Origin: an uncultured Deinococcales bacterium
GTDB taxonomy: Bacteria > Deinococcota > Deinococci > Deinococcales > JAAFIG01
Length of the DNA: 39,512 bases
NCBI GenBank assembly: GCA_964244895.1
Contig: CAXTKV010000010.1
Span: 12,053-51,564 of the forward strand
Direction of reading: 5' to 3'
Below the pieces are notes generated by a model. The model was not told where the DNA came from and did no database searches. It saw nothing but the letters and a program-made list of their open reading frames with translations. This document shows positions 2,649 through 28,394 of the stretch, piece after piece. The translations under genes and the position numbers were made by a program. Position 1 is the stretch's first letter, and every line of letters begins with the position of its first letter.

Positions 2649-4100
2649 ATGCGCGCACCCAGAGCATCAGAATCCGTATCGTTCCAACTCAACGGCCACG
2701 AGGTCTACCTCGAGAACGCGCCGTTCGAGACGACCCTGCTGCAATTCATCCGCGCGCAGGGCTTGTGCGGCACCAAAGAGGGTTGCAACGAGGGCGATTG
2801 CGGCGCGTGCACGGTCGCGCTTCTGGAACCCGGCCCGGACGGGCGCAACCGCTACACGGCCATCAACTCGTGCCTGATGCTCGCGCCGATGGCGGCGGGA
2901 CTGGAGGTCTGGACGGCGGAAGGCATTGCCGGGAAAAACCCGCTGGGTCACGAGCTGCATCCCGTCCAGCGCGAGATGGCCGTCCGGGGCGGCTCGCAGT
3001 GCGGCTACTGCACGCCGGGGTTCGTGATGAGTTTATTCGCGGAGTATTACCGCGAGAGCCGAAGCGCGCAGCATGGCGGTTTCGACGAGGGCGCGCTGGT
3101 CGGCAACCTCTGCCGCTGCACGGGCTACCGACCGATCCGCGAGGCCGCCCACGCGCTCGGCGCGCCGGAAAACGATGCCTTCACCGAGCGCGCCAGCAAA
3201 GCCAAACTCGCGCGGCACACGCTGGTCTACGACGGGTTCTACCGACCCAGCACGCTGGATGGCGTCGTCAGCTTGCTGAACGCCATCGATGGCGCGCGGT
3301 TGATCGCGGGCGGTACCGACCTGGCGCTCGAGGCGACGACCGCCTTCAAAGCCCTCGGGCCGGTCATCAGCATCGATGCGATTCCCGAATTGCACGTCGT
3401 GATCGACACGCCGGACTTCATCGAGATCGGGGCCGCCGCGCCTTTGTCCCGGCTCGAGACGGAGTTCAGAGGAATCGTGCCCTTGTTTGATGCGCTCTGG
3501 CCGTGGTTCGCGTCCAGGCAGATTCGCAACCGCGCCACGCTCGGCGGCAACCTGGGCACGGCCAGCCCGATCGGGGATGCGCCCGTCGTGCTGCTGGCCC
3601 TCGAAGCCAGCGTGATCGCGCTCGGGGTTCACGGCGAACGCACCATTCCGGTCGCGGATTTCTTTGAAGGCTACCGCCAGACCGCGCTTCAAAAAGCCGA
3701 GATGATCAAGGCCGTGCGCGTTCCCAAACGCCGCCCGCCCGGAACCGCGAGGCGTTTCGAGGCCGTCTACAAGGTCGCCAAACGCGGTCACGACGATATT
3801 TCCACCGTCATGAGCGCCATGGTGGTTCACCTGGACGACCACAACAACGTCATCCGCGCCCGCCTCGCCTTCGGCGGCGTGGCCGCCATTCCCGAGCGCG
3901 CCCTCGAGACGGAACTGGCGCTGGCGGGCCGCCCGTGGAACCGCGAGACGATCACGGATGCGAAGAAAGTGCTGGCCTCCGAATTCCAGCCGATCTCCGA
4001 TTTTCGCGCCAGCAGCGCGTACCGCGACCGCCTGATCGTCAACCTCCTCGAGAAGTTCTACCTCGAGCATCCCATCGAAGATTTCGAGGTGGTGCTGTGA
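2649..4100 (+). CDS. xdhA: xanthine dehydrogenase small subunit (two [2Fe-2S] clusters + FAD)
   Basis: GTKEGCNEGDCGACTV, AINSC, QCGYCTPGF, GNLCRCTGYRPI, IAGGTDL, FASRQIRNRATLGGN, KVAKR..DDIS, PISDFRAS..YR. Confidence 0.95.
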   Translation: MRAPRASESVSFQLNGHEVYLENAPFETTLLQFIRAQGLCGTKEGCNEGDCGACTVALLEPGPDGRNRYTAINSCLMLAPMAAGLEVWTAEGIAGKNPLGHELHPVQREMAVRGGSQCGYCTPGFVMSLFAEYYRESRSAQHGGFDEGALVGNLCRCTGYRPIREAAHALGAPENDAFTERASKAKLARHTLVYDGFYRPSTLDGVVSLLNAIDGARLIAGGTDLALEATTAFKALGPVISIDAIPELHVVIDTPDFIEIGAAAPLSRLETEFRGIVPLFDALWPWFASRQIRNRATLGGNLGTASPIGDAPVVLLALEASVIALGVHGERTIPVADFFEGYRQTALQKAEMIKAVRVPKRRPPGTARRFEAVYKVAKRGHDDISTVMSAMVVHLDDHNNVIRARLAFGGVAAIPERALETELALAGRPWNRETITDAKKVLASEFQPISDFRASSAYRDRLIVNLLEKFYLEHPIEDFEVVL

Positions 4101-4282
4101 ACCCGCATTCAGCCGCACCGTCCAGCGCAATCTTTTTTGATATCACAAGAACACCGTGCTGGACGGTGTTCTCAGGGGACACGACTTTGGTTTCCCTCCG
4201 TCTCTCGGGGCGCAAAAGAGGTGAGGCTCGAGCCACCTGCCGCGTTTACGCGAAAAGCTCGAAGCTCGAGGTGATGGCGTGA
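4097..4282 (+). CDS. putative 61-aa bridging mini-ORF coupling xdhA to xdhB
   Basis: GTG 4097 overlaps the xdhA TGA (GTGA) and has GAGGTG upstream; no stop until TGA 4280-4282, which overlaps the xdhB GTG. Contains repeat family A. Translation is inferred only. Confidence 0.4.
   Translation: MNPHSAAPSSAIFFDITRTPCWTVFSGDTTLVSLRLSGRKRGEARATCRVYAKSSKLEVMA
4115..4172. repeat. repeat family A, copy 4
   Basis: gcaccgtccagcgcaa ... agaacaccgtgctggacggtgttct (complete palindromic unit at 4148-4172). Confidence 0.85.
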
Positions 4283-6630
4283 AACCCGTCGGTCAGGCCG
4301 TGCCGCACGAGAGCGCGAACGCGCACGTCAGCGGGCAGGCGCGCTACACGGGCGATCTGCCCGAGGCAAAAAACATGCTGATCGCCTGGCCCGTGCAAGC
4401 TCCGCACGCGCGCGCAAAAATCATCAAGCTCGAGACATCGCACGCGATGGAGGTTCCGGGCGTGGTGGCCGTGCTGACCGCCCGAGACGTTCCCGGCGAG
4501 AACAACGTCGGCCCGATCCGGCACGACGAACCCCTGTTCCCCGACGAGATCGAGTACCACGGGCAGGCGGTCTGTTGGGTACTGGCCGAATCCGACGCGG
4601 CGGCGCGGGCCGGAGCCGCGAGGATCAACGTCGAATACGAGGTGCTCGAGCCCGTGCTGAGCATCCAGAACGCCATTTCCGCCAGGAGCTACCACATCGA
4701 CGCGCTGCATTTTTCGCGGGGTAACGCCAGGGGCGCGTTCGAAAAGGCCTACAGCACCCTGGAAGGCAGGTTTGACATCGGCGGGCAGGATCACTTTTAC
4801 CTCGAGACGCACGCCAGCCTGGCGCTTCTGGACGAGGAAGGCCAATTCCTGGTGCATTCCAGCACGCAGCACCCATCCGAGACGCAGGCGGTCGTGGCCC
4901 GCGTGCTGGGCGTGACGCGCAACCGCGTGACCGTCCAGAGCTTGCGCATGGGCGGCGGTTTCGGCGGCAAGGAAACCCAGGCCAACCCGTTTGCCAGCAT
5001 CGCGGCGCTGGGCGTGCAAAAAACCGGGCGTCCGGTGCGCGTGCGGTTGAATCGCCACCAGGACATGCAACTGACCGGCAAGCGCCACCCGTTCCAGGCG
5101 CATTACCGGGTCGGTTTCGACCGGGATGGCGGGCTGGAATCGCTCGAGGTGGAACTCTACGCGGACGGCGGCTGGAGCCTGGACTTATCGGAAGCCGTGC
5201 TGCTGCGCGCCTGCGTTCACGTGGACAACGCGTACTTCATCCCGAACGTGGACGTGATCGGGCGGGTCTGCAAGACCAACAAGACCTCCCACACGGCCTT
5301 CCGGGGCTTCGGCGGGCCGCAGGGCATCTTGGTGATCGAGGAAATCATCGACCGCGTGGCGCGCACGCTGAACTTGCGCCCGGACGAGGTGCGCGAGCGC
5401 AACTTTTACCGCGCCAACCCGGACGGAAGCCTCGGCGATGCCAGCACCACCCACTACGGTCAAGTCATCAGGGACAACCGCATCCACCGCGTCTGGCACG
5501 ACTTGAAAACCAACAGCCACTTTGAAGCCCGCCACCGCGAACTCGAGCACGCCAACCAGCAGCACGCTTACAAACGGCGCGGGTTGGCGATCACGCCCGT
5601 CAAGTTCGGGATCTCGTTCAACACGATCTTCTTGAATCAAGCTGGGGCGCTGGTGCACATTTTTGAAGACGGCAGCGTCCAGGTCAACCACGGCGGCACC
5701 GAGATGGGTCAGGGCTTGCACACCAAAATCCGCCAGATCGCCGCGCAGGCGCTCGGCGTGAAGCTCGAGATGGTGCGGGTCACGCCGACGCGCACGGACA
5801 AGGTTCCGAACACCAGCGCCACCGCCGCGTCATCTGGAACCGACCTGAACGGAGCCGCCGTCAAGAACGCCTGCGAGACGCTGCGAGGACGCCTGGCGAC
5901 CATCGCGGCGCAGATGTTCCCGAATCCCGTCAGCCCGGACGATCTCGAGTTTGCGGACGGTCAAATCGGCATTCTGGGCAGCGACGCCTCCCAACTCGAG
6001 TTTCAGGCCGTGGTGGACGCCGCGTACCACGCTCGGGTCAGCCTCTCCTCCACCGGGTTTTACCGCACGCCAGAAATTCATTTCGACAAGGCCAGAGGCA
6101 AGGGCGCACCCTTCCGCTATTTTTCTTACGGCGCTGCCGTCAGCGAAGTCGAAGTGGACGGCCTGACCGGGGAATGGGCGTTGCGCCGCGTGGACATCCT
6201 GCACGACGTGGGCGATTCGTTGAATCCCTTGATCGACCTGGGGCAAATCGAAGGCGGGTTCGTTCAGGGCATGGGCTGGTTGACCTTCGAGGAACTGCAC
6301 TGGGACGACACGGGGCGCTTGCGCACCTTCGCGCCCAGCACCTACAAGATTCCCACGATGGCGGACGTGCCCGTCGAATTCAACGCGCGCCTCGCGCCCA
6401 GAGACCCGGAACCCGGCGTGGTTTACGGCGGTAAGGCCGTCGGAGAACCCCCGTTGATGCTCGCCATCAGCGTGCGAGAAGCCATCAAGGACGCTATCAG
6501 CGCCTTCGGGCCGAGGGAAGGCGGCCCAATCGAACTCCTCAGTCCCGCCACGCCGGAAGCGATCCTGTGGGCCGTAGAGAGGGTTCAGGCGAAGCTCGAG
6601 ACGAAACAGGACGCGATTCCGGCGGATTGA
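4279..6630 (+). CDS. xdhB: xanthine dehydrogenase molybdopterin-binding subunit
   Basis: GQDHFYLETH, SSTQHPSE, RMGGGFGGKETQ, TAFRGFGGPQG, GGTEMGQGLHTK, PNTSATAASSGTDLNG, GQIEGGFVQGMG, KAVGEPP. GTG start with GAGGTG SD. Confidence 0.96.
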   Translation: MKPVGQAVPHESANAHVSGQARYTGDLPEAKNMLIAWPVQAPHARAKIIKLETSHAMEVPGVVAVLTARDVPGENNVGPIRHDEPLFPDEIEYHGQAVCWVLAESDAAARAGAARINVEYEVLEPVLSIQNAISARSYHIDALHFSRGNARGAFEKAYSTLEGRFDIGGQDHFYLETHASLALLDEEGQFLVHSSTQHPSETQAVVARVLGVTRNRVTVQSLRMGGGFGGKETQANPFASIAALGVQKTGRPVRVRLNRHQDMQLTGKRHPFQAHYRVGFDRDGGLESLEVELYADGGWSLDLSEAVLLRACVHVDNAYFIPNVDVIGRVCKTNKTSHTAFRGFGGPQGILVIEEIIDRVARTLNLRPDEVRERNFYRANPDGSLGDASTTHYGQVIRDNRIHRVWHDLKTNSHFEARHRELEHANQQHAYKRRGLAITPVKFGISFNTIFLNQAGALVHIFEDGSVQVNHGGTEMGQGLHTKIRQIAAQALGVKLEMVRVTPTRTDKVPNTSATAASSGTDLNGAAVKNACETLRGRLATIAAQMFPNPVSPDDLEFADGQIGILGSDASQLEFQAVVDAAYHARVSLSSTGFYRTPEIHFDKARGKGAPFRYFSYGAAVSEVEVDGLTGEWALRRVDILHDVGDSLNPLIDLGQIEGGFVQGMGWLTFEELHWDDTGRLRTFAPSTYKIPTMADVPVEFNARLAPRDPEPGVVYGGKAVGEPPLMLAISVREAIKDAISAFGPREGGPIELLSPATPEAILWAVERVQAKLETKQDAIPAD

Positions 6631-6636
6631 TTCCTG

Positions 6637-6696
6637 AAAACACCGCCCAGCATGCAAATTCTGGCTTCTCGAGGAGCCGCGTCCCAGACGGAGTTT
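6637..6696. repeat. repeat family A, copy 5
   Basis: aaaacaccgcccagcatgc-aaattctggcttctcgagg-..gcgtcccagacggagttt; spacer nearly identical to copy 7. Confidence 0.8.
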
Positions 6697-6723
6697 GCCC
6701 GCGCATGAACTCGAGGTATCACG

Positions 6724-7167
6724 ATGGCGAAGCGCTCGAAGAGCGACGAACATTACGTGCTGAACTTGTGCGACGAACTGCTCGGGCTTCAAGCACAACG
6801 CCAGTATGCACATTTTGATTTCTTGCGCGGCGATGCCGGACATCGCCTGCGCGTAGATGCGTATTACGAGCCGTTCAAGTTGGTGATCGAGTGTTTCGAG
6901 ACGCAGCATTCGAAGCCAACACCGTTCTTCGATAAGCCTGAACGCATGACTGTCAGTGGCGTAACGCGCGGTGTACAACGCCAAATCTACGATCAGAGGC
7001 GGCGCGATCTGCTGCCCCAGAACGGTATTCACTTGATCGAGATCAGTTACGCGGAACTCGAACACCACAAAAGCGGCAAGCTCAAACGGTTGCTCTTAGA
7101 AGATTCACGCATCCTACAAGAAAAACTGGTTCTATGGTTGAATACCCATCCTAAATCGCCCAGTTGA
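6724..7167 (+). CDS. putative Vsr/DUF559-like PD-(D/E)xK nuclease
   Basis: Pattern E..V...C..L, LRVDAYY...KLVIE....QH, YDQRRRDLL..NGIHLIEI resembles Vsr/DUF559-type endonucleases. GAGGT SD. Visibly more AT-rich than its neighbours. Confidence 0.65.
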   Translation: MAKRSKSDEHYVLNLCDELLGLQAQRQYAHFDFLRGDAGHRLRVDAYYEPFKLVIECFETQHSKPTPFFDKPERMTVSGVTRGVQRQIYDQRRRDLLPQNGIHLIEISYAELEHHKSGKLKRLLLEDSRILQEKLVLWLNTHPKSPS

Positions 7168-7174
7168 ATCTTTA

Positions 7175-7222
7175 GAACACCGTCCAGCGCGCATTCCTAA
7201 GCTCGCGTGCTGGACGGTGTTC
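7175..7222. repeat. repeat family A, copy 6 (near-perfect hairpin between convergent genes)
   Basis: gaacaccgtccagcgcgc-N12-gcgtgctggacggtgttc. Confidence 0.9.
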
Positions 7223-7229
7223 CGCTCAA

Positions 7230-7451
7230 TCAGCGTCTATCTTGCGCCGTGCTGAGCGTGTACACGTACCCGACCAGCAACGACATCAACACCAGATACA
7301 CCAACCGCAAGCCGATCAGGTGCGGCCCGCCGAAGCCCACGAAGTAATCGAACGCCAGCGTCGCCAGCACCAATCCCGCCAGGCCGAAACCGACAGCGCT
7401 CTGGTGGCGTTCCACGAAACGGCGCAGCCCAGATTCAGTTGCTCGAGTCAT
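7230..7451 (-). CDS. small 2-TM membrane protein downstream of the rhodopsin
   Basis: 73 aa with two hydrophobic helices; GGAGG SD; ATG lies 12 nt after the rhodopsin stop. Confidence 0.7.
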   Translation of the reverse strand: MTRATESGLRRFVERHQSAVGFGLAGLVLATLAFDYFVGFGGPHLIGLRLVYLVLMSLLVGYVYTLSTAQDRR

Positions 7452-7463
7452 ACGAACCTCCGT

Positions 7464-8315
7464 TCAGTCGCCCGCCGCGATGGTGGCATCGCTGGCCTTG
7501 ATGCCGCCCTCAGCTTTGGTTTTCTCGAGCGCGATGAAGTAGATCAGCGTGCCGAACCCGGCCTTGGCGATCATGTCCGCCAGGCTGTACCCGACCTGCA
7601 CCGCGACCACGCCGCTGGCCGAGAGACCACCGAAGAGAATCGGCAACAGGTAGGCGATCGGGTAGAAGCCCCACGATCCGATCAAGAGCAAGCGCAGGTT
7701 GCGCACCAGCACTTGAACGCGTTCCGGCTGGCGCTCGAGCGATCTGCCGAGTTCGACGAAGAGCGTGTAGACGATGTAGATGAACGGGATCGTGCTGAGC
7801 GTGCCCCACAGCAAGCGCGTGCCCGTGTCCCCGGAGATCTCGCCGGGGTAGCCCAGGACGATCATGGCGAAGGCCGCGATCACCAAACGCCCGATCATGC
7901 CTGCGGCGACGTTGCTGGCGAGCGCGAGAACGGCGACGGTTTCGACCAGCAAAAGCGGTACGGTCAGCACCCAGTCGGCGTAGCGGTAGGCGTCGTTGAA
8001 GGGAACGCCGGTGGCTTTGTAGACGCCGTTGGTCAGGGCGTAGGCCTCGTTCCAGGAGTTGAAGATGCGGAAGTAGTGGTAGCAGGCGACGGCCACGACC
8101 AACGCGGAGACGAGCATGGCTGGTTGGTATTTTACGCCGAGGTTCTGGCGTCCCAAGACGAAAAAGATGAATGCTGCACCCATCGTGGCGATGGTAATGG
8201 AGAACAGTTGGTAAATCAGTCCGAATTGGCCGGGGCTGAGTTCGAGTGGTACGGCGAAAGCGGCGTTGCTGAGTACGATTGCGCTCACGACCAGCGGAAC
8301 AACGAATTTTTTCAT
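7464..8315 (-). CDS. microbial rhodopsin, xanthorhodopsin/Gloeobacter-rhodopsin type, DTE proton pump, with N-terminal signal peptide
   Basis: Helix B YHYFRIFNSW; helix C FNDAYRYADWVLTVPLLLVE (D-T-E); GYPGEI; helix E WGTLSTIPF; WGFYPIAY; helix G DMIAK (Schiff-base Lys). GGGAGG SD. Confidence 0.96.
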   Translation of the reverse strand: MKKFVVPLVVSAIVLSNAAFAVPLELSPGQFGLIYQLFSITIATMGAAFIFFVLGRQNLGVKYQPAMLVSALVVAVACYHYFRIFNSWNEAYALTNGVYKATGVPFNDAYRYADWVLTVPLLLVETVAVLALASNVAAGMIGRLVIAAFAMIVLGYPGEISGDTGTRLLWGTLSTIPFIYIVYTLFVELGRSLERQPERVQVLVRNLRLLLIGSWGFYPIAYLLPILFGGLSASGVVAVQVGYSLADMIAKAGFGTLIYFIALEKTKAEGGIKASDATIAAGD

Positions 8316-8327
8316 AAAGCGCCTCCC

Positions 8328-8634: not shown

Positions 8635-8681
8635 TCGCGCACGTCCCGTCTCGAATCCATCAACTGCGGTACGCTTGAAGC

Positions 8682-18656: not shown

Positions 18657-20639
18657 CTAATCGCTGGCTGCCGCGCTCGAGGGTGCGCGTTTGGAAACGC
18701 GAGATTCCAGAACTACGGCGGGAATCAGCGTCAACGCTGCACCGATCACGACGATCAGCCCACCGAACCAGATCCACGACACCAACGGCGAGTTGATGAA
18801 CTTGATGACGGCGTTCTGCTTGTCGTCGGCCTGCACCAGCACGGTGTAGAAGTCGCCCAGCAGGGTGTACTGGATGGCGGGCGTGGCGACCGCCTCGCGC
18901 TGGTTGCCGTAGTAGTTCAATCGCGGGTAGTGTTCACCGCCGTCCAACGTCAGGTGGGCCGCGACGATCTCGCGTTGGGGTTCTTTGGTGCCGACCATGC
19001 CGAGGTAACGCACGTCGTGACCCTGCACGCGCTGGGTCTGGCCGGGCTTGAATGAAAGCTGCTGTTCGGACTTGTACGCGCCGCTGAAGCTGATGCCCAA
19101 CGCGATCACCACGATCCCCAGATGCGAAATGTACGCGCCGTAGCGTCTGGGGAACGCGTTCAGCAGATCGCCCAGCGCCACCAGGCTCGAGAATGCGCCT
19201 TTCTTGCCGGTCTCGCGCGCCCGGATGCGGGCCGCCCTGGAGGTCAGCGTCCACAGCACGGACACATTGAACGCGGCGATCATCGAGGTCGCCGCAACCG
19301 TCCAGACGCGCACGCCGAGCACCACCGCGACCGCAGCCGCGATCACCGCCAGGATCAGCGGCCAGCGCAGCGTGTCCCGCAGGGCCTGACCCTCGATGCG
19401 CCGCCACGTCAGGGCTGGCCCCAAGCCCATCAGCGCGATGATCGCCAGCCCGAGCGGTTCGCCGACTTGGTTGAAGAAGGGCGCGCCGACCGATGATTTC
19501 GCGCCCGATACAGCCTGAACGAAGACCGGAAAAAGCGTGCCCAGCACGACCGTGAACGCGAAGCTCGAGAACAAGAGGTTCCCCGCCAGGAAAGCGCCCT
19601 CGCGCGAGACGGGGCTGTCCAGCGCGTGATCGTCGCGGATGAGCGGCAAACGCCAGTACGCGATCCCCAGCGAACCCAGCAGCACGGCGGACAGGAACAC
19701 CAAAAACACCGGGCCGATGGGGCCGGACGCGAAGGCGTGAACGGATTCCACGATGCCGGAACGCGTTAAAAACGTGCCCAACAGCGTGCTGGAAAAGGCC
19801 GCGATGATCAACCCGATGTTCCAGCCCTTGAGGATTCGCCTGCGCTCCTGAATCTGAAGGCTGTGAATGTACGCGGTCGCCAGGAACCACGGCACGATGC
19901 TGGCGTTCTCGACGGGATCCCAGGCCCAGTAGCCGCCCCAGCCCAGCACCTCGTAGCTCCACCAGCCGCCCGCGATCACCGCCGCCGACAGGAATCCCCA
20001 GGCCACGATGCTCCACCGGCGCGTCTGCGCCAGCCAGGCCTCGCCCAACCGACCCGTCAAGAGCGCAGCGATGGCGTACGCAAAGGGAACCGTCAAGCCG
20101 ACGAAACCCAGGTACATCAACAAGGGGTGAACCGCCATCATCCAGTGGTTCTGCAATAAAGCGTTCGGGCCGTTGCCGTCCTCTGGCGGGACGGGCACGC
20201 CGATGAATGGGCTGCCGACGCTGGCGTTGATCATCAAGAAGACCATCAGCACCGCGTAGAGCGTCGCCAGCGCGTAAGGCCGGAGCGCGTCGTCCCTGGC
20301 GACCCGCGAAACGACGAAGGTGTACATGGAAAGAATCCAGGCCCACAAGAGGATGCTGCCCTCCAGCGCGCCCCACAAGCTCACGAACTTGACCCACGTC
20401 GGCGACGTGCTGGCCGAGTGGTTGGCGACGTAGCGGAAGCTCGTGTCGTTGGTCAGGAGTGCGACCAGCAACACGATCATGGACAGGCTCGAGAAGGCGA
20501 ACACCGGCAGGGCCGCGCGTCGTCCAATCTCTGCGAAGCGCGCGTCCCGCCTAGAGCCGCCCAAGCCGCTCGTGACCAGACCCCAGACGCAGAACACCAG
20601 CGCAATCAGAATCGCGTACTCGCCCAGGTTGGCGTTCAC
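18657..20639 (-). CDS. ccmF: heme lyase CcmF
   Basis: WGALEGSILLW, N.LLQN..M..HP, WWSYEVLGWGGYWAWDPVENAS..PW, GTFLTRSG...SVHAFA, AHLG-like SHLG. Confidence 0.97.
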   Translation of the reverse strand: MNANLGEYAILIALVFCVWGLVTSGLGGSRRDARFAEIGRRAALPVFAFSSLSMIVLLVALLTNDTSFRYVANHSASTSPTWVKFVSLWGALEGSILLWAWILSMYTFVVSRVARDDALRPYALATLYAVLMVFLMINASVGSPFIGVPVPPEDGNGPNALLQNHWMMAVHPLLMYLGFVGLTVPFAYAIAALLTGRLGEAWLAQTRRWSIVAWGFLSAAVIAGGWWSYEVLGWGGYWAWDPVENASIVPWFLATAYIHSLQIQERRRILKGWNIGLIIAAFSSTLLGTFLTRSGIVESVHAFASGPIGPVFLVFLSAVLLGSLGIAYWRLPLIRDDHALDSPVSREGAFLAGNLLFSSFAFTVVLGTLFPVFVQAVSGAKSSVGAPFFNQVGEPLGLAIIALMGLGPALTWRRIEGQALRDTLRWPLILAVIAAAVAVVLGVRVWTVAATSMIAAFNVSVLWTLTSRAARIRARETGKKGAFSSLVALGDLLNAFPRRYGAYISHLGIVVIALGISFSGAYKSEQQLSFKPGQTQRVQGHDVRYLGMVGTKEPQREIVAAHLTLDGGEHYPRLNYYGNQREAVATPAIQYTLLGDFYTVLVQADDKQNAVIKFINSPLVSWIWFGGLIVVIGAALTLIPAVVLESRVSKRAPSSAAASD

Positions 20640-20899
20640 GACGACCCCCAGGCTCGAGCAATCTCGAGCCCTCCCCTATGTGGGTTGGTGTACAGCGACC
20701 CTTCCGTCTCTCGCATCCCAAAAGCTGATGTTCGAGCCACCTCCCCTACCTGATGGCAGAGGAAGACAAATGTCAGAACACCGTCTGGCACACGAATCAA
20801 AGAATACGTGCTGGAGCGCGAGTAGCCCGTGAGGTGATGTCTGTTGATCAAGAACGGTCTTCCTCTGACCTCTGACCTCTGACTTCTGACCGCTTTCAT
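20636..20899 (-). CDS. putative 87-aa bridging mini-ORF coupling ccmE to ccmF
   Basis: ATG 20899 overlaps the ccmE TGA (ATGA); its TGA 20636-20638 overlaps the ccmF GTG. Made of heptamer and family A repeats; no recognisable domain. Confidence 0.4.
   Translation of the reverse strand: MKAVRSQRSEVRGRPFLINRHHLTGYSRSSTYSLIRVPDGVLTFVFLCHQVGEVARTSAFGMRETEGSLYTNPHRGGLEIARAWGSS
20775..20815. repeat. repeat family A, copy 15 (right arm decayed)
   Basis: agaacaccgtctggcacacg ... cgtgctgga. Confidence 0.65.
20864..20891 (-). repeat. heptamer tandem repeat TCTGAC(C/T) x4 (GGTCAGA on the minus strand)
   Basis: tctgacc tctgacc tctgact tctgacc. Confidence 0.8.
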
Positions 20900-21369
20900 C
20901 TGGCGTCCTGGATGGCTTTCTGGTAGTCATAACCGGACTGGCCGGGCTTGGGCGCGCTGTACTCTTCACTGTGCTTGACCAGCAGTTGCGTGCCCTCGAA
21001 CACGGCGCTCTGGCCGGAACCCTGGAACTTGCCTTCGACGGTCACACCCATGCCCTCTTTGAACAAGTCCGGCGGCGTGCCGCTGTGCTTGACGGGGAAT
21101 TTGACGGTTCCGTCAGAAATCACGAACGAGAGTTCCAGGTTGGTGCGATCGAACTTGACGGAACCGGGTTCGACCACGCCGCCCAATCGCACGGTGCGGC
21201 CCGCGTACTTGGCTTCGTCCTGGAGGTACTCGGATGGGGTGATGAAAAACGTCAGGTTCTGCTGGATGCTCGAGGTGAAGATGTAAACGATGGCGGCGAC
21301 GATCACCAGACCGCCGACGAGGTACTTGATCGCACCCCTGGATCGCGGGCTTGAACTCACGTTCGTCAT
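20896..21369 (-). CDS. ccmE: heme chaperone CcmE
   Basis: FFITPSE, VRLGG.V..GS, PDLFKEG.GV..EG, LLVKHSEEY (HxxxY). ATG overlaps the ccmD stop. Confidence 0.95.
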   Translation of the reverse strand: MTNVSSSPRSRGAIKYLVGGLVIVAAIVYIFTSSIQQNLTFFITPSEYLQDEAKYAGRTVRLGGVVEPGSVKFDRTNLELSFVISDGTVKFPVKHSGTPPDLFKEGMGVTVEGKFQGSGQSAVFEGTQLLVKHSEEYSAPKPGQSGYDYQKAIQDAR

Positions 21370-21506
21370 TCGTTGTCCTTGAGTTTGCGCGCCAGCCGCC
21401 ACAAATACGTCAGGTACCCGCCGAAAATCACGGTGGCGGCGGCGTACACGATCCACACGAAGCTGTCCCAGCGGTGAATATCGGACGGTGGCAAGCCATT
21501 TTGCAT
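21366..21506 (-). CDS. ccmD: heme exporter protein CcmD (46 aa, below the ORF-track cut-off)
   Basis: MQNGLPPSDIHRWDSFVWIVYAAATVIFGGYLTYLWRLARKLKDNE: FVWxxY, one TM, basic tail. TGATG overlap with ccmC and ATGA overlap with ccmE. Confidence 0.85.
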   Translation of the reverse strand: MQNGLPPSDIHRWDSFVWIVYAAATVIFGGYLTYLWRLARKLKDNE

Positions 21507-22279
21507 CAGCGCACCGCCTGGGTTCTGGTCTGGGTTGGCGCGGGGTTGTGAGCGTTCAGTTCCATCTCGAGTTCGCGTTCCTCAGATTCAAATTGCACGC
21601 GAGCGATCTGGGCGCGCAGGCGAAGCATGTAGAAAAACAACAGCGTCACCCCGGCGAACATCACGAAAAACGCGGCCTGAAGTCCGGGGTTGCCGCTCAA
21701 ATAGGAATGCTTTTCGGCGATGCTGAAGGTCGGCGTCTGGTGCAGGGTGCGCCACCAGTAGACGCTCATGTAGTTGATCGGCACACCGACGGACGCGACC
21801 ACGCCGATCACCGCGCAAACCCTGGCGCGGCGGGCCGGGTCATCTATCAAGCCGCGCACCATCAAGTACCCGATGTACACGGCGAACATCAGCGCGGTCG
21901 TGGTCAGGCGCGCATCCCACGTCCAGAACGTGCCCCAGGTCGGGCGGCCCCACAGCGCGCCGGAAAAAAGCGTGAAGGCGATAAACACCAGCCCGATCTC
22001 GACGCTGGAAAACGCGACCCGATCCCAGTGGTTGCGGCGCGTGATCAGGTACGCCAGGCTGCTGGCCGCCGTCACGAAGAACGCCAGGTACGCGATCCAG
22101 GCGGATTGCGCGTGGATCGGCAGGATGCGCGACAGGTAGCCTTGCAGCACATCCGGCGGCGCGAGGAAGGTCAGCACCACCCCGACCGCGATCAGCGCGG
22201 CGCTCAAGTAGCCCAGAACGGGCGTGATCCAGCGCGCGTCGAAAAGTGCGGTGGCGCGTCCAGTGGGGTTTTGAATCAT
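21506..22279 (-). CDS. ccmC: heme exporter CcmC
   Basis: IH...AW, SGALWGRPTWGTFWTWDARLTT (WWD domain), SVYWWRTLHQ. GGAGG SD. Confidence 0.96.
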   Translation of the reverse strand: MIQNPTGRATALFDARWITPVLGYLSAALIAVGVVLTFLAPPDVLQGYLSRILPIHAQSAWIAYLAFFVTAASSLAYLITRRNHWDRVAFSSVEIGLVFIAFTLFSGALWGRPTWGTFWTWDARLTTTALMFAVYIGYLMVRGLIDDPARRARVCAVIGVVASVGVPINYMSVYWWRTLHQTPTFSIAEKHSYLSGNPGLQAAFFVMFAGVTLLFFYMLRLRAQIARVQFESEERELEMELNAHNPAPTQTRTQAVR

Positions 22280-22413: not shown

Positions 22414-23148
22414 TCAGTTCTCGACCGCGAACGGAAACGCCAGGGTACACACCACCAGATAAATCGCGTCGAAGCCCACCAGCAATCTTAGCCACGCGGC
22501 CACGTCCAATGAAGGGCCATCCGTCACGATCAAGCCCGTGGCCTTGATCGTGGCCAGCACGACCGGTACGACGATCGGGAAGATCAGCACCGGCAGCATC
22601 GATTCTCGGGCGCGCAAGTTGACCGTGATGGCCGAATGAAAGACCGTGATGATCGAAAACCCGAGCGCACCCAGCACCAGCGTTCCGGCGAATTCCAGGT
22701 AGCGCCCGTGCAGATCCAGCCCGAAGATCAGCATCACCAGCGGCGCGATCAGCGTAGTCAGGGTCAGCATCAGCACGAAGTTACCCAACAATTTGCCCAG
22801 GTACACGACCTCGTGCGGCACGGGGTACAGCAAAAGCGCCTCGAGCGCCCCGTCTTCGGCTTCGGCGGCAAAGGCGCGCCCTGCCGCGAGCACGCTGGCG
22901 AACGCGATGGCAATCCACAGCACGCCCGGCGCGACCGATTGTCCCACGATCCGCCTGTCCGGGTCGGAGAACGCCAACCCCATGATCAGCACCACGATCC
23001 CCGCAAAAAACAGGGTCGCCGTCAGCACGTCCCTGGCGCGTCCCTCGATGCGCCAGTCCTTGCGCGCAATCGTCCAGACGGCGTTCAGGGCGTTGGCGCG
23101 CCGGCTCGGGGTGGCTCGGGTTTCGGATTGCCCTCGCTCGAGCCTCAC
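22414..23148 (-). CDS. ccmB: heme exporter CcmB
   Basis: IARKDWRIE.R, APGVLW, F..EAEDGALE.L, YLGK, RES.LP.L.FP..VP. Confidence 0.93.
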   Translation of the reverse strand: MRLERGQSETRATPSRRANALNAVWTIARKDWRIEGRARDVLTATLFFAGIVVLIMGLAFSDPDRRIVGQSVAPGVLWIAIAFASVLAAGRAFAAEAEDGALEALLLYPVPHEVVYLGKLLGNFVLMLTLTTLIAPLVMLIFGLDLHGRYLEFAGTLVLGALGFSIITVFHSAITVNLRARESMLPVLIFPIVVPVVLATIKATGLIVTDGPSLDVAAWLRLLVGFDAIYLVVCTLAFPFAVEN

Positions 23149-23222
23149 GTGAGAACACCGTCCAGCACAACGTTTATGAATTTGCGTCCCGGACGGTGTT
23201 CCAGGGCCATCAACGTCTTCAC
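23145..23222 (-). CDS. putative 25-aa bridging mini-ORF coupling ccmA to ccmB
   Basis: GTG 23222 overlaps the ccmA TGA; reads MKTLMALEHRPGRKFINVVLDGVLT; its TGA 23145-23147 overlaps the ccmB GTG. Confidence 0.4.
   Translation of the reverse strand: MKTLMALEHRPGRKFINVVLDGVLT
23151..23201. repeat. repeat family A, copy 16
   Basis: gagaacaccgtccagcacaa ... ttgcgtcccggacggtgttc. Confidence 0.88.
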
Positions 23223-23887
23223 GACGCCATCCCTGCGAAGCTCGAGGGCGTAGGGACAGTCAGCAAGCCATCTTCCAAAGTGACTTCCAACGTGGCGAGC
23301 TGCGCGGTGCGCTCGGGTTCGTGGCTGGAGACGATCAAGGTGGTTCCTTTTGCCCGCTCAGCCCGCAAGATCTCTTCGACCAGGTTCTTCCCAGCCGGGT
23401 CGAGCGCCGCGAAGGGCTCGTCCAACAAGACCAGTTCCGGCTCCAGCAGCAGGACTTTCGCCAGCGCCAGGCGTTTTCGCATTCCGCTGGAGTATCCGCG
23501 CACGCGCGTCCTGACGCCGCCCAGACCCACGCGCTCGAGCGCCACCTCGAGCCCGGTTCGGGGCAGGCTGCGACCGTGCATTGAAAGGCTGAACTCCAGA
23601 TTTTCCAGACCGTCCAGGTCGGGGTACAAACCCAGCGCGTGCGAGACGATCAGGGTGCGCGAACGGATGGATTCGCGTTCCTTCAAGGGCAGGCCCAGCA
23701 CCGTACCGCCGCCCCGCGTGGGGGTCAGCGCCGTAGAAATAATTCGCAGTAAGGTGGTTTTACCCGCGCCGTTCGCGCCGTACAACGCCAGCACCTGCCC
23801 GCGTTCGAGCCGCAAACTCGCGCCGCGCAGCACGTAAGACCGCCCGTACCGATGGACGAGTCCGGCGAGTTCGAGCGCGAGCGTCAT
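23219..23887 (-). CDS. ccmA: heme ABC exporter ATPase CcmA
   Basis: Walker A GANGAGKT, signature YSSGMRKRL, Walker B LLDEP, H-loop SSH. TAGACT-N6-ATG. Confidence 0.93.
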   Translation of the reverse strand: MTLALELAGLVHRYGRSYVLRGASLRLERGQVLALYGANGAGKTTLLRIISTALTPTRGGGTVLGLPLKERESIRSRTLIVSHALGLYPDLDGLENLEFSLSMHGRSLPRTGLEVALERVGLGGVRTRVRGYSSGMRKRLALAKVLLLEPELVLLDEPFAALDPAGKNLVEEILRAERAKGTTLIVSSHEPERTAQLATLEVTLEDGLLTVPTPSSFAGMAS

Positions 23888-23932
23888 CGGGTCAGTCTAC
23901 AGCGCGCCCGTTCGCCCCCTCGAGAGTCAAAT

Positions 23933-24254
23933 GCACCGTTCCAGACGAGAGAAGCACAGGGCAGCTCAAGATTCGAGGGTTCCTGAGGCGCAAATCTCGA
24001 GCCGAGCATCGAATCCCGTAAGGGTGGGTCTGCGATCCACCCTCGCCCAGGACGTACTCGACGATTTCGCGTCCCGGCGAGGGCGAAGCCTGCTTCGCTC
24101 CTACAAAAATAGGAATCGGGATTCTCGAGAACACCGTCCAGGACGCATCTCGAGACCACCATTCCAGACGAGAGGGCGAAGCATGCTTCACCCCTACGGA
24201 ACACCATCCTGCGCGCAGATTCTCGATGGGCGAGAACATTGTCCAGAACGATCT
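23933..24254. repeat. mosaic (BIME/REPIN-like) cluster of three GTAG-type REPs and several family A arms (copy 17)
   Basis: REPs at 24018-24042 (+, GTAAGGGTGGGTCtgcGATCCACCC), 24081-24104 (-, GTAGGAGCGAAGCAGGCTTCGCCC) and 24174-24197 (-, GTAGGGGTGAAGCATGCTTCGCCC). Family A arms near 23934, 24127, 24157, 24199 and 24232. Confidence 0.85.
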
Positions 24255-25031
24255 TTACTTGAGGTTGTTCTCGAAGTTCTGCAACCAGGCGGGCGTCAAA
24301 CCCTGCAACTGCGCGTTCAGCACCGTGAACTGATCGGTCAAGAGCAGCACGCCGACCGCGATCAGCACGACGCCGCTGATCTTCTCCACCAGGTTAACCC
24401 AGCGCGCCACGCGGCGAAATCCGGCGCTGATGCGGTCCCACGCCAGAGCCGCCAGTAGGAACGGAACCGCCAGCCCAGCCGCGTACACGGCCAGCAAGCC
24501 CACGCCCGTGCCGATATTCGCGCTCGAGGCCGCGATGCCCAGAATCGTGCCCAGGATCGGGCCGATGCACGGCGTCCAGCCCGCCGCGAAGGCCGCCCCC
24601 AACGCCACCAGCCCGAAGCGGCTGGCGTTGCCCAGGTCGGTGCGGTACTCGCGGTTCAGGAACGGAATGCGTTCCTTGACCAGCAAGATCGCGCCAAACA
24701 CCAGGATCAGCGCCCCGCCGATCTGCGCCAGCAGGGTCTTATTGGCCAGCAGCACCGATCCCAGCGCGCTCGCGCCTGCACCGAAGCTGATGAACACCAG
24801 GCTGAACCCCAGGATGAACAACAAAGCCCCACCGACGGGTTTCTGGCCGGTTCCGCCGCCCAGCACGGCCAGGTAACTGGGCACGAGCGGCAGCACGCAG
24901 GGCGACAAAAAAGACAGCACGCCCGCCAGGAACGCGGCCAGCACGCCGACGCCGGGCGTACCCGCGCTTTGCGCCAGGGCGGTGCTCGAGAGCGCGAAGG
25001 TCAGGACAATCAGGGGGACGCGGAGCTTCAT
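24255..25031 (-). CDS. ccdA: cytochrome c biogenesis thiol-disulfide transporter CcdA
   Basis: AFLAG.LSFLSPCVLPLVP and GWTPCIGPILG; YAAGLAVPFL. Confidence 0.93.
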   Translation of the reverse strand: MKLRVPLIVLTFALSSTALAQSAGTPGVGVLAAFLAGVLSFLSPCVLPLVPSYLAVLGGGTGQKPVGGALLFILGFSLVFISFGAGASALGSVLLANKTLLAQIGGALILVFGAILLVKERIPFLNREYRTDLGNASRFGLVALGAAFAAGWTPCIGPILGTILGIAASSANIGTGVGLLAVYAAGLAVPFLLAALAWDRISAGFRRVARWVNLVEKISGVVLIAVGVLLLTDQFTVLNAQLQGLTPAWLQNFENNLK

Positions 25032-25040
25032 TGATTGAGT

Positions 25041-25556
25041 TTACGGGCGCGAGCCCAAAAGGTTCAGCGACTTTCGCACCTGTTCGACGCTCAGCGCACC
25101 CTCGAGCGCGTCGCGGATGCGGTCGTCGGCGTCCACCAGCACGGTCGTGGGGTACGAGCGCAATTTCAGGTTTCTGGAAAGTTGCAGGGCTTTCGGGCCG
25201 TCCAGGACGCGCAATCGGTCTTTGGGGATGGTTCCGGGAGCGGAAATGCCGACGTTGCCCGCCTCGACGGGGTTGACAGCGATCACGCCGACGCCGGATT
25301 CGCGCAGGGACGCCCAGTGGCGTTCCATTTCTTGGGGTTCCAGGCACGAACGCGTGTAGAACGCGATAAAGTATGCGCCCGCCAAGTCCTGGCGCGTTTC
25401 GGGTGGGACGGGTTCACCCAGCGGAACCCTGGCCAGCGTGATGCTCGAGGCGAGCGCGATGGCGCACAGCGCTCGAGCCACAAGCCCGAAATTTGACGAG
25501 AACACTGTCCTGGACGGCGTTCTCAAGATACGTGGCGGATGGTGCTCTTGGTTCAC
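25041..25556 (-). CDS. exported thioredoxin-fold (redoxin-like) protein with a single active-site Cys
   Basis: FIAFYTRSCLEP where CxxC is expected, VIAVN, YPTTVLVD..DRIR...G. GTG start overlaps the PBP TGA. Confidence 0.65.
   Translation of the reverse strand: MNQEHHPPRILRTPSRTVFSSNFGLVARALCAIALASSITLARVPLGEPVPPETRQDLAGAYFIAFYTRSCLEPQEMERHWASLRESGVGVIAVNPVEAGNVGISAPGTIPKDRLRVLDGPKALQLSRNLKLRSYPTTVLVDADDRIRDALEGALSVEQVRKSLNLLGSRP
25498..25524. repeat. repeat family A, copy 18 (single palindromic unit in probable coding N-terminus)
   Basis: gagaacactgtcctggacggcgttctc; reads RTPSRTVFS in the redoxin frame. Confidence 0.8.
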
Positions 25557-28009
25557 GGGTTGGCGGGCGGCGGCTCAGGGGTGAACGGCACGACCGGATC
25601 GGGCGGGGGTTCCGCGACGGGCGGAGGCGGCGCGACCACGGGTGGCGGCGCGACCACGGGCGGAGGGGGCGGCGGCGGTGGCGGCAGCACGTAATTCGGA
25701 TCGTAGAACCGCAGGTCGCTGACCTTGATGGATTGCAATTGCACACATCCCGGCGAGGTGCTGGCATCAGCCAAGGGGTTGACGCTGGCCTGGTTGCGGC
25801 GGCAGGTGTTCAACGCGACGGTCACACGGGATTCGTCCGGCGGCGGAGGCCCGTCCACGGCGGGCCGGGTGCGCGGAGCCTGAGCGATGCCGTCGTTCGG
25901 GATGCTGGGATTGCCCGCGCTGCTGACGGGGCCAGGGCGCGTGTTGTACGCCATTCTGACGCCCTGCACGCCACGGTAGCCGATGTTGGACGGTTCGCTG
26001 TACGCACCGGGCGGCTTGCCCTCGATGGCTCGAGCCACGAAGTCGTGCCAGACGGGCGGGTTGTACGTGCCGGAAAAAACGTTGCGTCCGTACATCGGCT
26101 TGTTGTCGTCGCGCCCAATCCAGACGGCTGCCGTCATGCGCGGGGTCGTGCCGACGAACCACATGTCCACCGGGCCGGAGGACGTTCCGGTCTTGCCGCC
26201 GACCTCGATGCCCGGAATCTTGGCGGCCAGCGCGTACTGACCGCTGATGGCGGCGGGGTCGTTGACCACACCCTTGATCATGTCGAGCGCCACGTAAGCG
26301 GTCTGCGGACTCCAGACGCGGCGGCGGATCAGCGTGTCGTCGCTGCTGGCGTCGTACAGCACGCGCCCCGTCGCGTCCTCTATCCGAGAAATGTAGCGCG
26401 GTTGCATCCAGATGCCACCGTTGACGAAGCTCGCGTAGGCGGACGCCATCAACAGCGGGTTGGCATCGATGCCGCCGATGAAGCTCGAGTACGGCAGCTC
26501 GTCGGGCACGGTGAAGCCCAGCAAGCGCAACTTGTCGCGGAATCGGGCGCGTCCGACGCGGTCATCCAGGCCCAGGTTGATGGTCGGCAGGTTCAAGGAG
26601 TGATCCAATGAGTAGCGCAGCGTGACGGGTGCGTTCTTGACGGCGTCCGGCCCATCGAAGTTCTTCGGACACCAGGTATCGCGCCGCCCGAAGCAATCCG
26701 TGCCCGGAATCCGCAGGCGGATCGGGGCATCCATGAAGGTTTCCCACTGGTTGATGCCCTGGTCTATGGCGGTCGCGTACAGCAGGGGTTTGACGCTCGA
26801 GCCCGGCGAGCGCTTGAACTGGCTCGAGGTGGTGCGGTTGTACTCGTCCTGACCGGACAAGTCGTTGCCGCCGACCATCGCCAGAATCTCGCCGTTCAAC
26901 GGGTCAACCGCGACGATGGCGATGTTGGCCTGGTACGGCACGCGGGCGCGCTGGGAGGCGATCTCGGCGGCCTGCTGGGCCTTGGTGTCCAGCGTCGTGT
27001 AGACCTTCAATCCGCCGCCGGAATAGACTTGGTTGTCCGGGAAGCGCGATTTCAGGATCTTGCGAATCTCGAACATGAAATGCGAGGCGAACTCGGTGCG
27101 GATCTCCTCGACGCGGTTCATCTTGGGGTTGGTCAGTTTGGCTTTGGTGACGTTGCCCTTGGCGTCGTAATTGACCTGCCAGCCGTTGGGCTGGACTTTC
27201 TCGAGCCAGGTCGCGCGGCCCTGATCCGCCGTGATCCACTCGTCCTCGACCATGCGATCCAGCCGGACTTTCATGCCCTCGCGCACGCGCTTGAAGGTGC
27301 CCGTGTCGTCGCGGTTCTTGCCCAGGTTGCCGATGGAAAAATCGTTCGGGGCGGGCAGCAGGGACGCCAGGTAAAGGCTTTCGGCGACGGTCAGTTCCAG
27401 CGGATCCTTGCCGAAGTACGCTTGCGCCGCCGCCCGGATGCCCTTGAGGTTGCCGCCCCAGAAGGCCACGTTCAAGTAGGCAGTCAGGATTTCTTCTTTG
27501 GTGAAGTAGCGCTCCACCTGCACGGACAGCATGATTTCTTTGATTTTGCGTTCCGGCGCGCGCTTTCTGGAGTTGACCAGCTCCTTGGGCAGGATCGTGG
27601 ATCGCACCAGTTGCTGCGTGATCGTGCTGCCGCCCTGGCGATTGTCGCGAAAGAAGGTTTCCAGGATGCTTCGCCCGACCGCGACGGGCTCGAAGCCGTA
27701 GTGCTTGAAGAAATCCCGGTCTTCGCTGGCGACCACCGCAGCCACGGTCAAGGGCGAGATTTCCGTCAGCTTGGCGGGTCGCCGGTCGAAGCGTTCGCCG
27801 CCGACCGTCGGGGCCAGCACGCCGATCAGCGCGCCGTCTCTGGCGTAGACGCGGGTCGTACCCTCGAGTTGCAACTGGTCGAGCTGACGGTAATCGGGCA
27901 AGTCCAGGTACCAGTGAACCAGGAACGTGCCCAGCACAGCCACGGCTGACACGATGCCCGCCAGCGCGAGCGCGCCCAGCAGCCGGGATAGGCGAACGAC
28001 GAAGCTCAC
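25553..28009 (-). CDS. class A penicillin-binding protein (transglycosylase/transpeptidase) with Pro-rich tail
   Basis: TG motifs EDRDF..H.G, GGSTITQQL, RKIKE, KEEIL..YLN. TP motifs SSVK, SLN, KTG. Confidence 0.95.
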   Translation of the reverse strand: MSFVVRLSRLLGALALAGIVSAVAVLGTFLVHWYLDLPDYRQLDQLQLEGTTRVYARDGALIGVLAPTVGGERFDRRPAKLTEISPLTVAAVVASEDRDFFKHYGFEPVAVGRSILETFFRDNRQGGSTITQQLVRSTILPKELVNSRKRAPERKIKEIMLSVQVERYFTKEEILTAYLNVAFWGGNLKGIRAAAQAYFGKDPLELTVAESLYLASLLPAPNDFSIGNLGKNRDDTGTFKRVREGMKVRLDRMVEDEWITADQGRATWLEKVQPNGWQVNYDAKGNVTKAKLTNPKMNRVEEIRTEFASHFMFEIRKILKSRFPDNQVYSGGGLKVYTTLDTKAQQAAEIASQRARVPYQANIAIVAVDPLNGEILAMVGGNDLSGQDEYNRTTSSQFKRSPGSSVKPLLYATAIDQGINQWETFMDAPIRLRIPGTDCFGRRDTWCPKNFDGPDAVKNAPVTLRYSLDHSLNLPTINLGLDDRVGRARFRDKLRLLGFTVPDELPYSSFIGGIDANPLLMASAYASFVNGGIWMQPRYISRIEDATGRVLYDASSDDTLIRRRVWSPQTAYVALDMIKGVVNDPAAISGQYALAAKIPGIEVGGKTGTSSGPVDMWFVGTTPRMTAAVWIGRDDNKPMYGRNVFSGTYNPPVWHDFVARAIEGKPPGAYSEPSNIGYRGVQGVRMAYNTRPGPVSSAGNPSIPNDGIAQAPRTRPAVDGPPPPDESRVTVALNTCRRNQASVNPLADASTSPGCVQLQSIKVSDLRFYDPNYVLPPPPPPPPPVVAPPPVVAPPPPVAEPPPDPVVPFTPEPPPANP

Positions 28010-28356
28010 GCTTCACGCACCGATTTCTTTTGATCCCACACGCGTTCAGGATACCCGAGCGCCCACCTTTGAGCGTGAGCGCGATTCTCATATCGTGATG
28101 CTTCTCGTCCCGCTCGCCGAAGGACGAACCATCTCGAGCCTTCTCGACTGCACCCGATCCTGCGGAGCGGCAAAAAACACCGTCCAGCACGCATGTCCCA
28201 AGAGCTTGTCGACGAGGTCTCGAGCGATGTTCGCGAAGCCCGCGAAGGCGAAAGGTGAAAGCAGAAAAAAGCTGAAATGAACACCGCTGGGACGAGCGGC
28301 CCATCGAAGCGCTCGACCCTCACTTTGTCCTTTTCCCTTTCAGCTTTTACCTTCAC
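28006..28356 (-). CDS. putative 116-aa bridging ORF (second link of the regulator-to-PBP chain)
   Basis: GTG 28356 overlaps TGA 28353-28355; its TGA 28006-28008 overlaps the PBP GTG. Repeat-rich, no recognisable domain. Confidence 0.3.
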   Translation of the reverse strand: MKVKAEREKDKVRVERFDGPLVPAVFISAFFCFHLSPSRASRTSLETSSTSSWDMRAGRCFLPLRRIGCSREGSRWFVLRRAGREASRYENRAHAQRWALGYPERVWDQKKSVREA

Positions 28357-28377
28357 CGACACGTCCTGGACGGTGTC
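28174..28377. repeat. repeat family A, copy 19: widely spaced arms enclosing inverted degenerate heptamer tracts
   Basis: aaaacaccgtccagcacgca (28174-28193) and gacacgtcctggacggtgtc (28358-28377); gaaaggt/gaaagca tract at about 28244-28277 faces a ctttcag/cttttac tract at about 28323-28357. Confidence 0.75.
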
Positions 28378-28394
28378 GTCAACGCACCCGTCAC
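28353..28394 (-). CDS. putative 13-aa bridging mini-ORF (first link)
   Basis: GTG 28394 overlaps the regulator TGA; reads MTGALTTPSRTCR, mostly from the repeat arm. Confidence 0.3.
   Translation of the reverse strand: MTGALTTPSRTCR

Follow-up and report, generated by a model that had tools for sequence, protein, structure and literature searches.

The question raised by this 39,512-nt stretch of an uncultured Deinococcales genome (contig C10:12053-51564 of the genome analysed, G000; hereafter the window) is why repeat DNA that separates neighbouring operon genes should carry an open reading frame (ORF) that overlaps the stop codon of the upstream gene and the downstream gene's start codon by exactly four nucleotides. 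Four such junctions, between xdhA and xdhB, ccmE and ccmF, ccmA and ccmB, and a response regulator and a class A penicillin-binding protein (PBP), had suggested that insertions inside operons are tolerated, or selected, when they keep an open frame that hands ribosomes to the next gene. Across the genome and among its relatives we find that about 110 short, protein-unlike ORFs of this kind, which we call relays, are likely kept by selection, and that their translation would carry ribosomes across inserts at operon junctions and melt the hairpins within them.

The genome (5.12 Mb in 328 contigs, 62.7% GC, 91% complete) yielded 4,633 called genes and 3,001 co-directional neighbour pairs, 358 of which share a 4-nt overlap of stop and start codons (NTGA); within the window the calls agree with Pfam. 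We scored a relay wherever the frame opened at the upstream stop ended exactly on the downstream start, in all 1,978 co-directional gaps of 30-400 nt, and took as internal control the base before the upstream TGA (CTGA and TTGA) together with the other stop codons (TAA and TAG). By definition, every TGA in the +1 frame provides the gene frame with an NTG start candidate, so that choosing the start of the longest ORF inflates the relay pattern; the CTGA, TTGA, TAA and TAG controls share this artefact with the ATGA and GTGA gaps. The original prediction had warned of it, along with the scarcity of stops in GC-rich DNA, and the artefact is real: the controls reach 5-8%. Exact relays were found in 110 of 444 gaps that follow ATGA or GTGA, in 55 of 815 that follow CTGA or TTGA and in 38 of 719 that follow TAA or TAG. 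Divided by upstream stop and by the presence of a dispersed palindromic repeat, family A, the relays are distributed as follows.

ATGA: 20 of 55 repeat gaps, 22 of 84 other gaps
GTGA: 33 of 138 repeat gaps, 35 of 167 other gaps
TTGA: 6 of 108 repeat gaps, 11 of 131 other gaps
CTGA: 15 of 253 repeat gaps, 23 of 323 other gaps
TAA: 13 of 256 repeat gaps, 18 of 265 other gaps
TAG: 2 of 90 repeat gaps, 5 of 108 other gaps

The excess after ATGA or GTGA over CTGA or TTGA was significant in repeat gaps (Fisher's test, p=5e-12) and in other gaps (p=2e-8), many of which contain degenerate repeats, and it was present in each of six gap-length bins. It persisted when both neighbours scored at least 40 (88/343 versus 40/572) and under a definition tolerant of start choice, in which any in-frame start candidate was accepted (151/444 versus 95/815, p=9e-21). 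Independently of start calls, the frame classes of the downstream gene were uneven after ATGA or GTGA (55/99/39 in repeat gaps, 68/116/67 in other gaps) and flat after CTGA or TTGA (119/114/128 and 154/148/152, respectively). In repeat gaps of the relay-compatible frame class that follow an [A/G/T]TGA stop, the relay frame was open in 87 of 131 cases, versus 39 and 49 for the other two frames. That the mini-ORFs are commoner than chance as a class is thus borne out by their genome-wide excess over the stop-context controls. The comparison first proposed for this purpose, with shuffled spacers, was also exceeded (59 relays observed; 100 dinucleotide shuffles averaged 28.7 and none reached 59), but it proved too easy a null and was dropped, because the repeat core is free of stops in all six frames and gaps without a repeat exceed their shuffles too.

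Family A is a very abundant palindrome, the 11-nt core of which occurs in 1,157 exact copies and in 3,062 copies with at most one mismatch. Of 2,930 cores with at most one mismatch, 468 lie inside called genes and 2,462 outside, though 82% of the genome is coding. The repeat thus resembles the repetitive extragenic palindrome (REP) or bacterial interspersed mosaic element (BIME) type in being high-copy, short, imperfect and mainly extragenic, and it forms hairpins in computed folds. Read from the sequence, all six frames of the consensus around the core are free of stop codons. An Rfam search of the window gave no match at the gathering score, and a Y1 transposase of the REP-associated tyrosine transposase (RAYT) type (PF01797) had no match in the genome, where it may lie in the unassembled 9%. 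The core, at two mismatches or fewer, is held by 82 of the 110 ATGA/GTGA relays and is not recognisable in the other 28, and relays with ATG or GTG occupy only 53 of the 900 repeat-bearing co-directional gaps. All four spacers of the window contain family A, as had been claimed, the copy between ccmE and ccmF being degenerate (two mismatches to the 11-nt core).

Relays score about -0.2 per codon for codon usage, the value of non-coding control frames, and on this ground the reading that they are overlooked real genes was rejected. The core occurs within them in all registers and in both orientations (14/11/17 forward, 19/6/11 reverse) and at varying positions, and the inserts are heterogeneous (52-355 nt), with relay ORF lengths varying freely. 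Because codon usage is non-coding, register and orientation are variable and length is free, relays are neither ordinary small genes nor a frame borne by the repeat. Their start codons nevertheless look like real start sites, past or present, because a Shine-Dalgarno (SD) motif precedes 33% of them versus 7-8% of control stops; true overlapped starts carry one in 51% of cases.

The junctions themselves have a distinct ancestry. ATGA and GTGA make up 22.4% of stops before co-directional gaps and 14.5% before convergent gaps. For 27 relay junctions a matching stretch was found in the relatives G006 and G003, where 15 are direct NTGA overlaps, 2 are relay ORFs, 2 are short gaps and 8 are gaps without a relay; direct overlaps were far rarer at the counterparts of other gaps (7/115) and of ATGA/GTGA gaps that do not match a relay (5/39). 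Because relatives show direct NTGA overlaps at these places, the spacers can be read as insertions into stop/start junctions that once overlapped. The effect belongs to such junctions and not to repeats as such.

The xdh junction illustrates this ancestry. Its features are the following.

2649..4100, plus strand: xdhA, the 2Fe-2S and FAD subunit (Pfam Fer2, Fer2_2, FAD_binding_5, CO_deh_flav_C)
4083..4105, plus strand: upstream copy of the duplicated stop/start junction, with SD-like GAGGTG, GTGA and the first xdhB bases; alignable to 4265-4288 as well as to the junctions of G011 and G003, which are undivided
4097..4282, plus strand: relay mini-ORF X1 of 61 aa, with a GTGA overlap at either end (from the sequence; no Pfam match)
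4116..4173, plus strand: family A palindromic copies within X1 (repeat families D1 and D7; repeat search, hairpin in the fold)
4265..4288, plus strand: downstream junction copy, the old xdhA tail, with its TGA now closing X1 and the xdhB GTG at 4279 (alignment)
4279..6630, plus strand: xdhB, the molybdopterin subunit (Pfam; N-terminus aligns with relatives from residue 1)

The TGA stop of xdhA (4098-4100) is overlapped by the GTG at 4097, and X1 has a summed codon-usage score of -9.0. In 10 of 11 loci of relatives xdhA and xdhB share an NTGA overlap, and both ends of the 178-nt spacer align to the undivided junction of relatives. The C-terminal end of X1, read from the DNA, is LEVMA*, and XdhA of G005 and G002 ends in LEVSA*.

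At the ccmA-ccmB junction the comparison extends to the fate of the frame after insertion.

23219..23887, minus strand: ccmA (Pfam ABC_tran)
23145..23222, minus strand: relay mini-ORF X3 of 25 aa, with a GTGA overlap at either end (from the sequence; no Pfam match)
23153..23202, minus strand: complete family A palindrome, two arms and an AT-rich loop, filling X3 (from the sequence and a repeat search)
22414..23148, minus strand: ccmB (Pfam; N-terminal length as in G005 and G001)

The GTG start of ccmB at 23148 has no SD motif and lies within the base of the repeat hairpin, and the palindrome-bearing 96-nt stretch 23135-23230 folds at -38.5 kcal/mol (z = -2.7). In relatives, ccmA and ccmB overlap directly at 5 of 13 loci and are separated by inserts at the other 8. 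Counting the window, there are nine insert-bearing loci from three genera, with inserts of 73-328 nt and of several unrelated kinds, and in 9 of 9 an ORF with an ATG or GTG start spans the insert from the ccmA stop to a TGA on the ccmB start. The original prediction had proposed looking among relatives for indels in multiples of three, and at this junction all indels within related inserts are divisible by three (45, 36, 36, 48, 54, 9, 2+1 and a net 117 nt). The frame stays open at pairwise identities of 0.71-0.89, whereas random substitution at the observed level would leave it open with a chance of 0.08-0.41 per pair. Differences fall evenly on the codon positions (15/9/16, 10/15/10, 16/8/14, 20/22/25 and 8/7/8), with no third-position bias. 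Because indels come in multiples of three and substitutions are even over codon positions, the frame is conserved here and the peptide is not. Unrelated hairpin-rich inserts have entered this junction in at least three genera (loci L016-L026 in g4 and g5), which suggests that it is a hot spot for insertion or that inserts are retained there unusually strongly. On the other side of ccmA, a 107-aa ORF (23884-24207, minus strand) overlaps the start of ccmA by ATGA at its end, and in the 367-nt gap upstream of ccmA the frame from the upstream gene's TAA is open throughout, with no start codon on that stop.

The remaining two junctions of the window share the layout and are less well supported by relatives. 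They comprise the following features, to which an in-frame variant beyond the PBP gene is added.

20896..21369, minus strand: ccmE, with an open frame reaching up to 21456 (Pfam CcmE; our gene call)
20636..20899, minus strand: relay mini-ORF X2 of 87 aa, entered by ATGA and left by GTGA, with a degenerate family A copy (D15) and other dispersed repeats (from the sequence and a repeat search)
18657..20639, minus strand: ccmF (Pfam; N-terminus aligns with relatives from residue 1-2)
28391..28834, minus strand: response regulator, receiver domain only (Pfam Response_reg)
28353..28394, minus strand: first step of a chain, 13 aa, GTGA at both ends, with a family A half-site (D11; from the sequence and a repeat search)
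28006..28356, minus strand: second step of the chain, 116 aa, GTGA at both ends (from the sequence)
25553..28009, minus strand: class A PBP (Pfam Transgly and Transpeptidase; start agrees with relatives)
25041..25556, minus strand: in-frame variant, an ORF whose GTG start overlaps the stop of the PBP gene (GTGA, 25553-25556; from the sequence and a repeat search)

At all four junctions the mini-ORFs have the coordinates, lengths and terminal overlaps first read from the sequence, including the three GTGA overlaps of the two-step chain. Pfam confirms the neighbours as XdhA, XdhB, CcmE, CcmF, CcmA, CcmB, the response regulator and the class A PBP; the four downstream starts (XdhB, CcmF, CcmB and PBP) are longest-ORF starts, and their N-termini are colinear with those of relatives. 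The claim that the spacers hold no recognisable domain likewise stands, Pfam being empty for three mini-ORFs and for the 118-aa ORF (28006-28362) that contains the fourth.

That the ccmE-ccmF junction descends from an overlap is weakly supported. Its spacer also holds a second dispersed repeat, of tandem TCAGAGG-like units (20814-20885, minus strand), which recurs at many places in this genome and in 17 genomes of the family, with dozens of matches across several genera; because the matches span several genera, it would be older or more mobile than family A. In two relatives of genus g2 (G005, locus L036, and G001, locus L037) ccmE and ccmF are separated by a conserved ORF, some 80 aa long and with two hydrophobic helices, that is coupled to its upstream neighbour by TGATG and to its downstream one by ATGA; it resembles a genuine small membrane protein that has entered the ccm operon. 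Upstream of ccmE, a 46-aa ORF in the position of ccmD (21366-21508, minus strand) has an ATGA overlap with ccmE and a 1-nt overlap with ccmC, so that ccmC, the ccmD position and ccmE form an ordinary uninterrupted coupled chain adjoining the interrupted junctions.

For the chain between regulator and PBP, the case that it is more than chance is weak. Genome-wide, two-step chains show a mild excess (12/334 ATGA/GTGA gaps versus 23/1,441 controls, p=0.027), and synteny between regulator and PBP among relatives is limited. In the ORF that follows the PBP gene, a family A copy (25494-25524) falls within the first 25 codons; our caller favours an internal start at 25481, and the ORF may represent the same answer to repeat insertion, achieved in frame. 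The five co-directional gaps of 30-400 nt that follow ATGA or GTGA in the window comprise three single-step relays, one two-step chain and one in-frame extension. As a general route, absorption of repeats in frame into the downstream gene was rejected as uncommon: only a handful of N-terminal extensions coded by the repeat were seen by eye. A core lies within 400 nt of the downstream start in 34 of the 358 overlapping pairs.

Overlaps of the NTGA type couple translation, and 13 of 14 tested pairs were strictly coupled (Huber et al. 2019, PMC6728339). According to a review, coupling declines once spacing grows by <20 nt, and its mechanism is given as RNA unfolding, reinitiation or both (PMC12548453). 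An insert at a coupled junction would break the coupling unless a bridging ORF restores two overlaps. We propose that the ancestral pair would have been coupled through an NTGA overlap, with the SD motif in the end of the upstream gene, and that a family A palindrome or other DNA was then inserted at the overlap. Sometimes about 20 nt of the junction may have been duplicated, keeping the old start on the upstream stop and placing a start with its TGA before the downstream gene. Where the insert was 3n+2 nt long and free of stops, ribosomes would restart at the old start, read through, unwind the hairpins, terminate on the downstream start and reinitiate there; other inserts would have lowered downstream expression and been lost, or their relic start would have decayed. 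The relay peptides would be by-products, for which neither folding nor binding is expected. The idea that DNA inserted within operons is retained where an open frame joins the stop of the upstream gene to the next start is supported by the genome-wide excess, by the indels in multiples of three and by the frame that stays open through divergence.

Several observations weigh against this account. The gene calls came from a codon-usage caller built for this analysis and not from a standard program, and the related genomes are not independent of one another. Relative G006, a complete genome that has fewer repeats and of which 2 Mb of 5.1 Mb were analysed, shows no enrichment (18/167 versus 22/283); as the pipeline was the same, the signal is not a product of the method, nor is the effect shared by the whole family. 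A sample of G003 (0.69 Mb) gave 3/26 versus 6/53 and is underpowered. The downstream starts of relays have an SD motif in 55% of cases versus 43-47% for other genes, and since the motif is about as frequent as elsewhere, the downstream genes could initiate on their own. At 8 of the 27 orthologous junctions the relative has a gap without a relay. Duplication of the junction is clear at few sites only, and a general target-site duplication was rejected because the overall signal is weak (mean flank identity of 8.82 of 28 positions versus 8.11 for shuffled pairings). Perhaps five insertion histories, not nine, lie behind the ccmA-ccmB loci. The ccmE-ccmF junction is a 3-nt gap in all six g4 loci and so not an ancestral overlap there, and the inserts of G002 and G010 between these genes are not coupled. 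Three of four g4 regulator-PBP junctions end in TAA without a relay. Finer comparison was limited to distant material: among the genomes searched, the genus holds this genome alone, and a CcmB scan of metagenome contigs gave a best identity of 39%. Among sequencing runs, one contained a 0.09 share of the words sampled from the genome, and no RNA run was listed as containing them.

The alternative that survives best, though we consider it unlikely, is that translation of the spacer protects the operon RNA from Rho-dependent termination or decay and that the placement of stop on start is incidental. Rho loads on untranslated RNA (PMC12548453), its RNA-binding domain was found in 5 of 5 family genomes searched, and downstream starts mostly carry their own SD motif. 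Against it stand the Rho domain itself, which had no match in the genome analysed here and may lie in its unassembled 9%, the ccmB start, which has no SD motif and is buried in a hairpin, and the ends of the frames: in repeat gaps after ATGA or GTGA, 53 end exactly on the start and 48 elsewhere within 30 nt, versus 21 and 45 after CTGA or TTGA, so that the exact geometry is enriched and not coverage alone.

Somewhat less probable again is that relays are functionless remnants, in which the upstream ATG or GTG is a relic of the old overlapping start, the two NTGA motifs stem from duplication of the junction and the open frame has yet to decay. The duplications, clear at xdh and a few other sites, the SD motifs retained by relic starts and a repeat core that is stop-free in any frame would all follow from this. 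Remnants should also show equal frame classes and equal openness, whereas the observed classes are 55/99/39 and, of 131 gaps, 87 have an open relay frame, versus 39 and 49 for the other two frames; they should tolerate indels of any length, whereas those at ccmA-ccmB are all multiples of three; and their frames at that junction would have survived random substitution with the per-pair probabilities given above (0.08-0.41).

We regard as improbable that the mini-ORFs are genuine small genes with functional products. Real small genes coupled at both ends do exist, the two-helix ORF found between ccmE and ccmF in the two g2 relatives being membrane-protein-like, and one relay (C39), in a gap scored as repeat-free, looks protein-like. 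The codon usage of relays, however, matches that of non-coding control frames, with only 4-6% of them scoring above 0.1 per codon; 82 of 110 are built on the repeat, the mini-ORFs of the window have no Pfam match, third positions show no excess of substitutions, and the peptides differ between genera.

Least probable of all is chance arising from stop-poor, GC-rich DNA and the NTG/TGA rule: the relay frame is somewhat more open even in controls (0.30-0.36 versus 0.18-0.29), and in the window each of the four downstream genes begins at its longest-ORF start, but the controls that share the artefact (CTGA, TTGA, TAA, TAG) are 4-5 times lower, the same pipeline finds no enrichment in G006, and the comparative evidence (the ccmA-ccmB loci, the indels and the overlaps in relatives) argues against it. 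For the class, chance is largely refuted; an individual case, for instance the regulator-PBP chain, may be due to it.

Selection for bridging ORFs would give a simple rule for how operons tolerate invasion by repeats, with translation conserved and the peptide free to drift. It explains the odd hypothetical mini-genes annotated between operon genes in repeat-rich genomes, offers a test from sequence for gene pairs that depend on coupling (here ccmA-ccmB and xdhA-xdhB) and points to a source of translated non-genic sequence. To the broader proposal we give about even weight: coupled junctions would act as a frame filter on incoming DNA, which would survive there mainly if it is 3n+2 long and stop-free, and this would be a rule of the host and not a property of the mobile element. 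If so, a repeat-rich genome would translate at least 100 meaningless peptides purely to keep ribosomes moving, and these would be a lasting reserve of translated sequence from which new genes could arise.

Several known systems resemble this arrangement. Pairs coupled by termination and reinitiation at ATGA or TGATG (PMC6728339) have the same 4-nt overlap that relays show at both ends; here, in contrast, protein-like features are absent from the middle cistron, which appears only to bridge the insert. In short leader ORFs that supply a downstream gene with ribosomes, synthetic bicistronic designs included (PMC12548453), there is likewise a throw-away ORF, the translation and not the product of which drives the next gene and overrides RNA structure. 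Relays differ from these in being natural, inside operons and insertion-derived, not designed and not in 5′ leaders.

The REP and BIME elements of proteobacteria are imperfect palindromes that occur in high copy number, mostly outside genes, and fold into hairpins. Family A resembles them in copy number, extragenic position and hairpins, and differs in that no RAYT-type Y1 transposase match was found in this 91%-complete genome. A literature search linking REP elements or miniature inverted-repeat transposable elements (MITEs) to translational coupling or relay ORFs found nothing relevant among the entries listed. Rickettsia palindromic elements (RPEs) insert in frame into genes and extend functional proteins. 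In both cases repeat DNA becomes translated, here only as proposed from the layout of the frames; the difference is that the repeat is mostly read here as a separate cistron, with one in-frame case in the window (25041-25556).

The closest parallel is provided by mycobacterial interspersed repetitive units (MIRUs), the ORF of which keeps one orientation and a fixed register. The idea itself is an older one, having been proposed for them: an ORF within the repeat, coupled at a spacing of -4 nt, was suggested to allow the inserted unit to remain in place while hardly affecting expression (PMC12548453, citing Supply et al. 1997). Both systems place a repeat at the stop/start junction of co-directional genes and an ORF across the insert that overlaps both neighbours by 4 nt. 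They differ in that the MIRU ORF lies within the repeat unit (PMC12548453), whereas the core here is read in three registers and both orientations; in that the inserts here are heterogeneous, 28 of 110 relays having no recognisable core; and in the host phylum, Deinococcota here and mycobacteria there, the two being compared by layout and not by sequence. The present case stands apart in that the repeats are REP-like palindromes, that the host belongs to the Deinococcota and that the ORF is not carried by the element; it takes a proposal made in print for a single mycobacterial repeat into a phylum and a type of repeat that are both unrelated.

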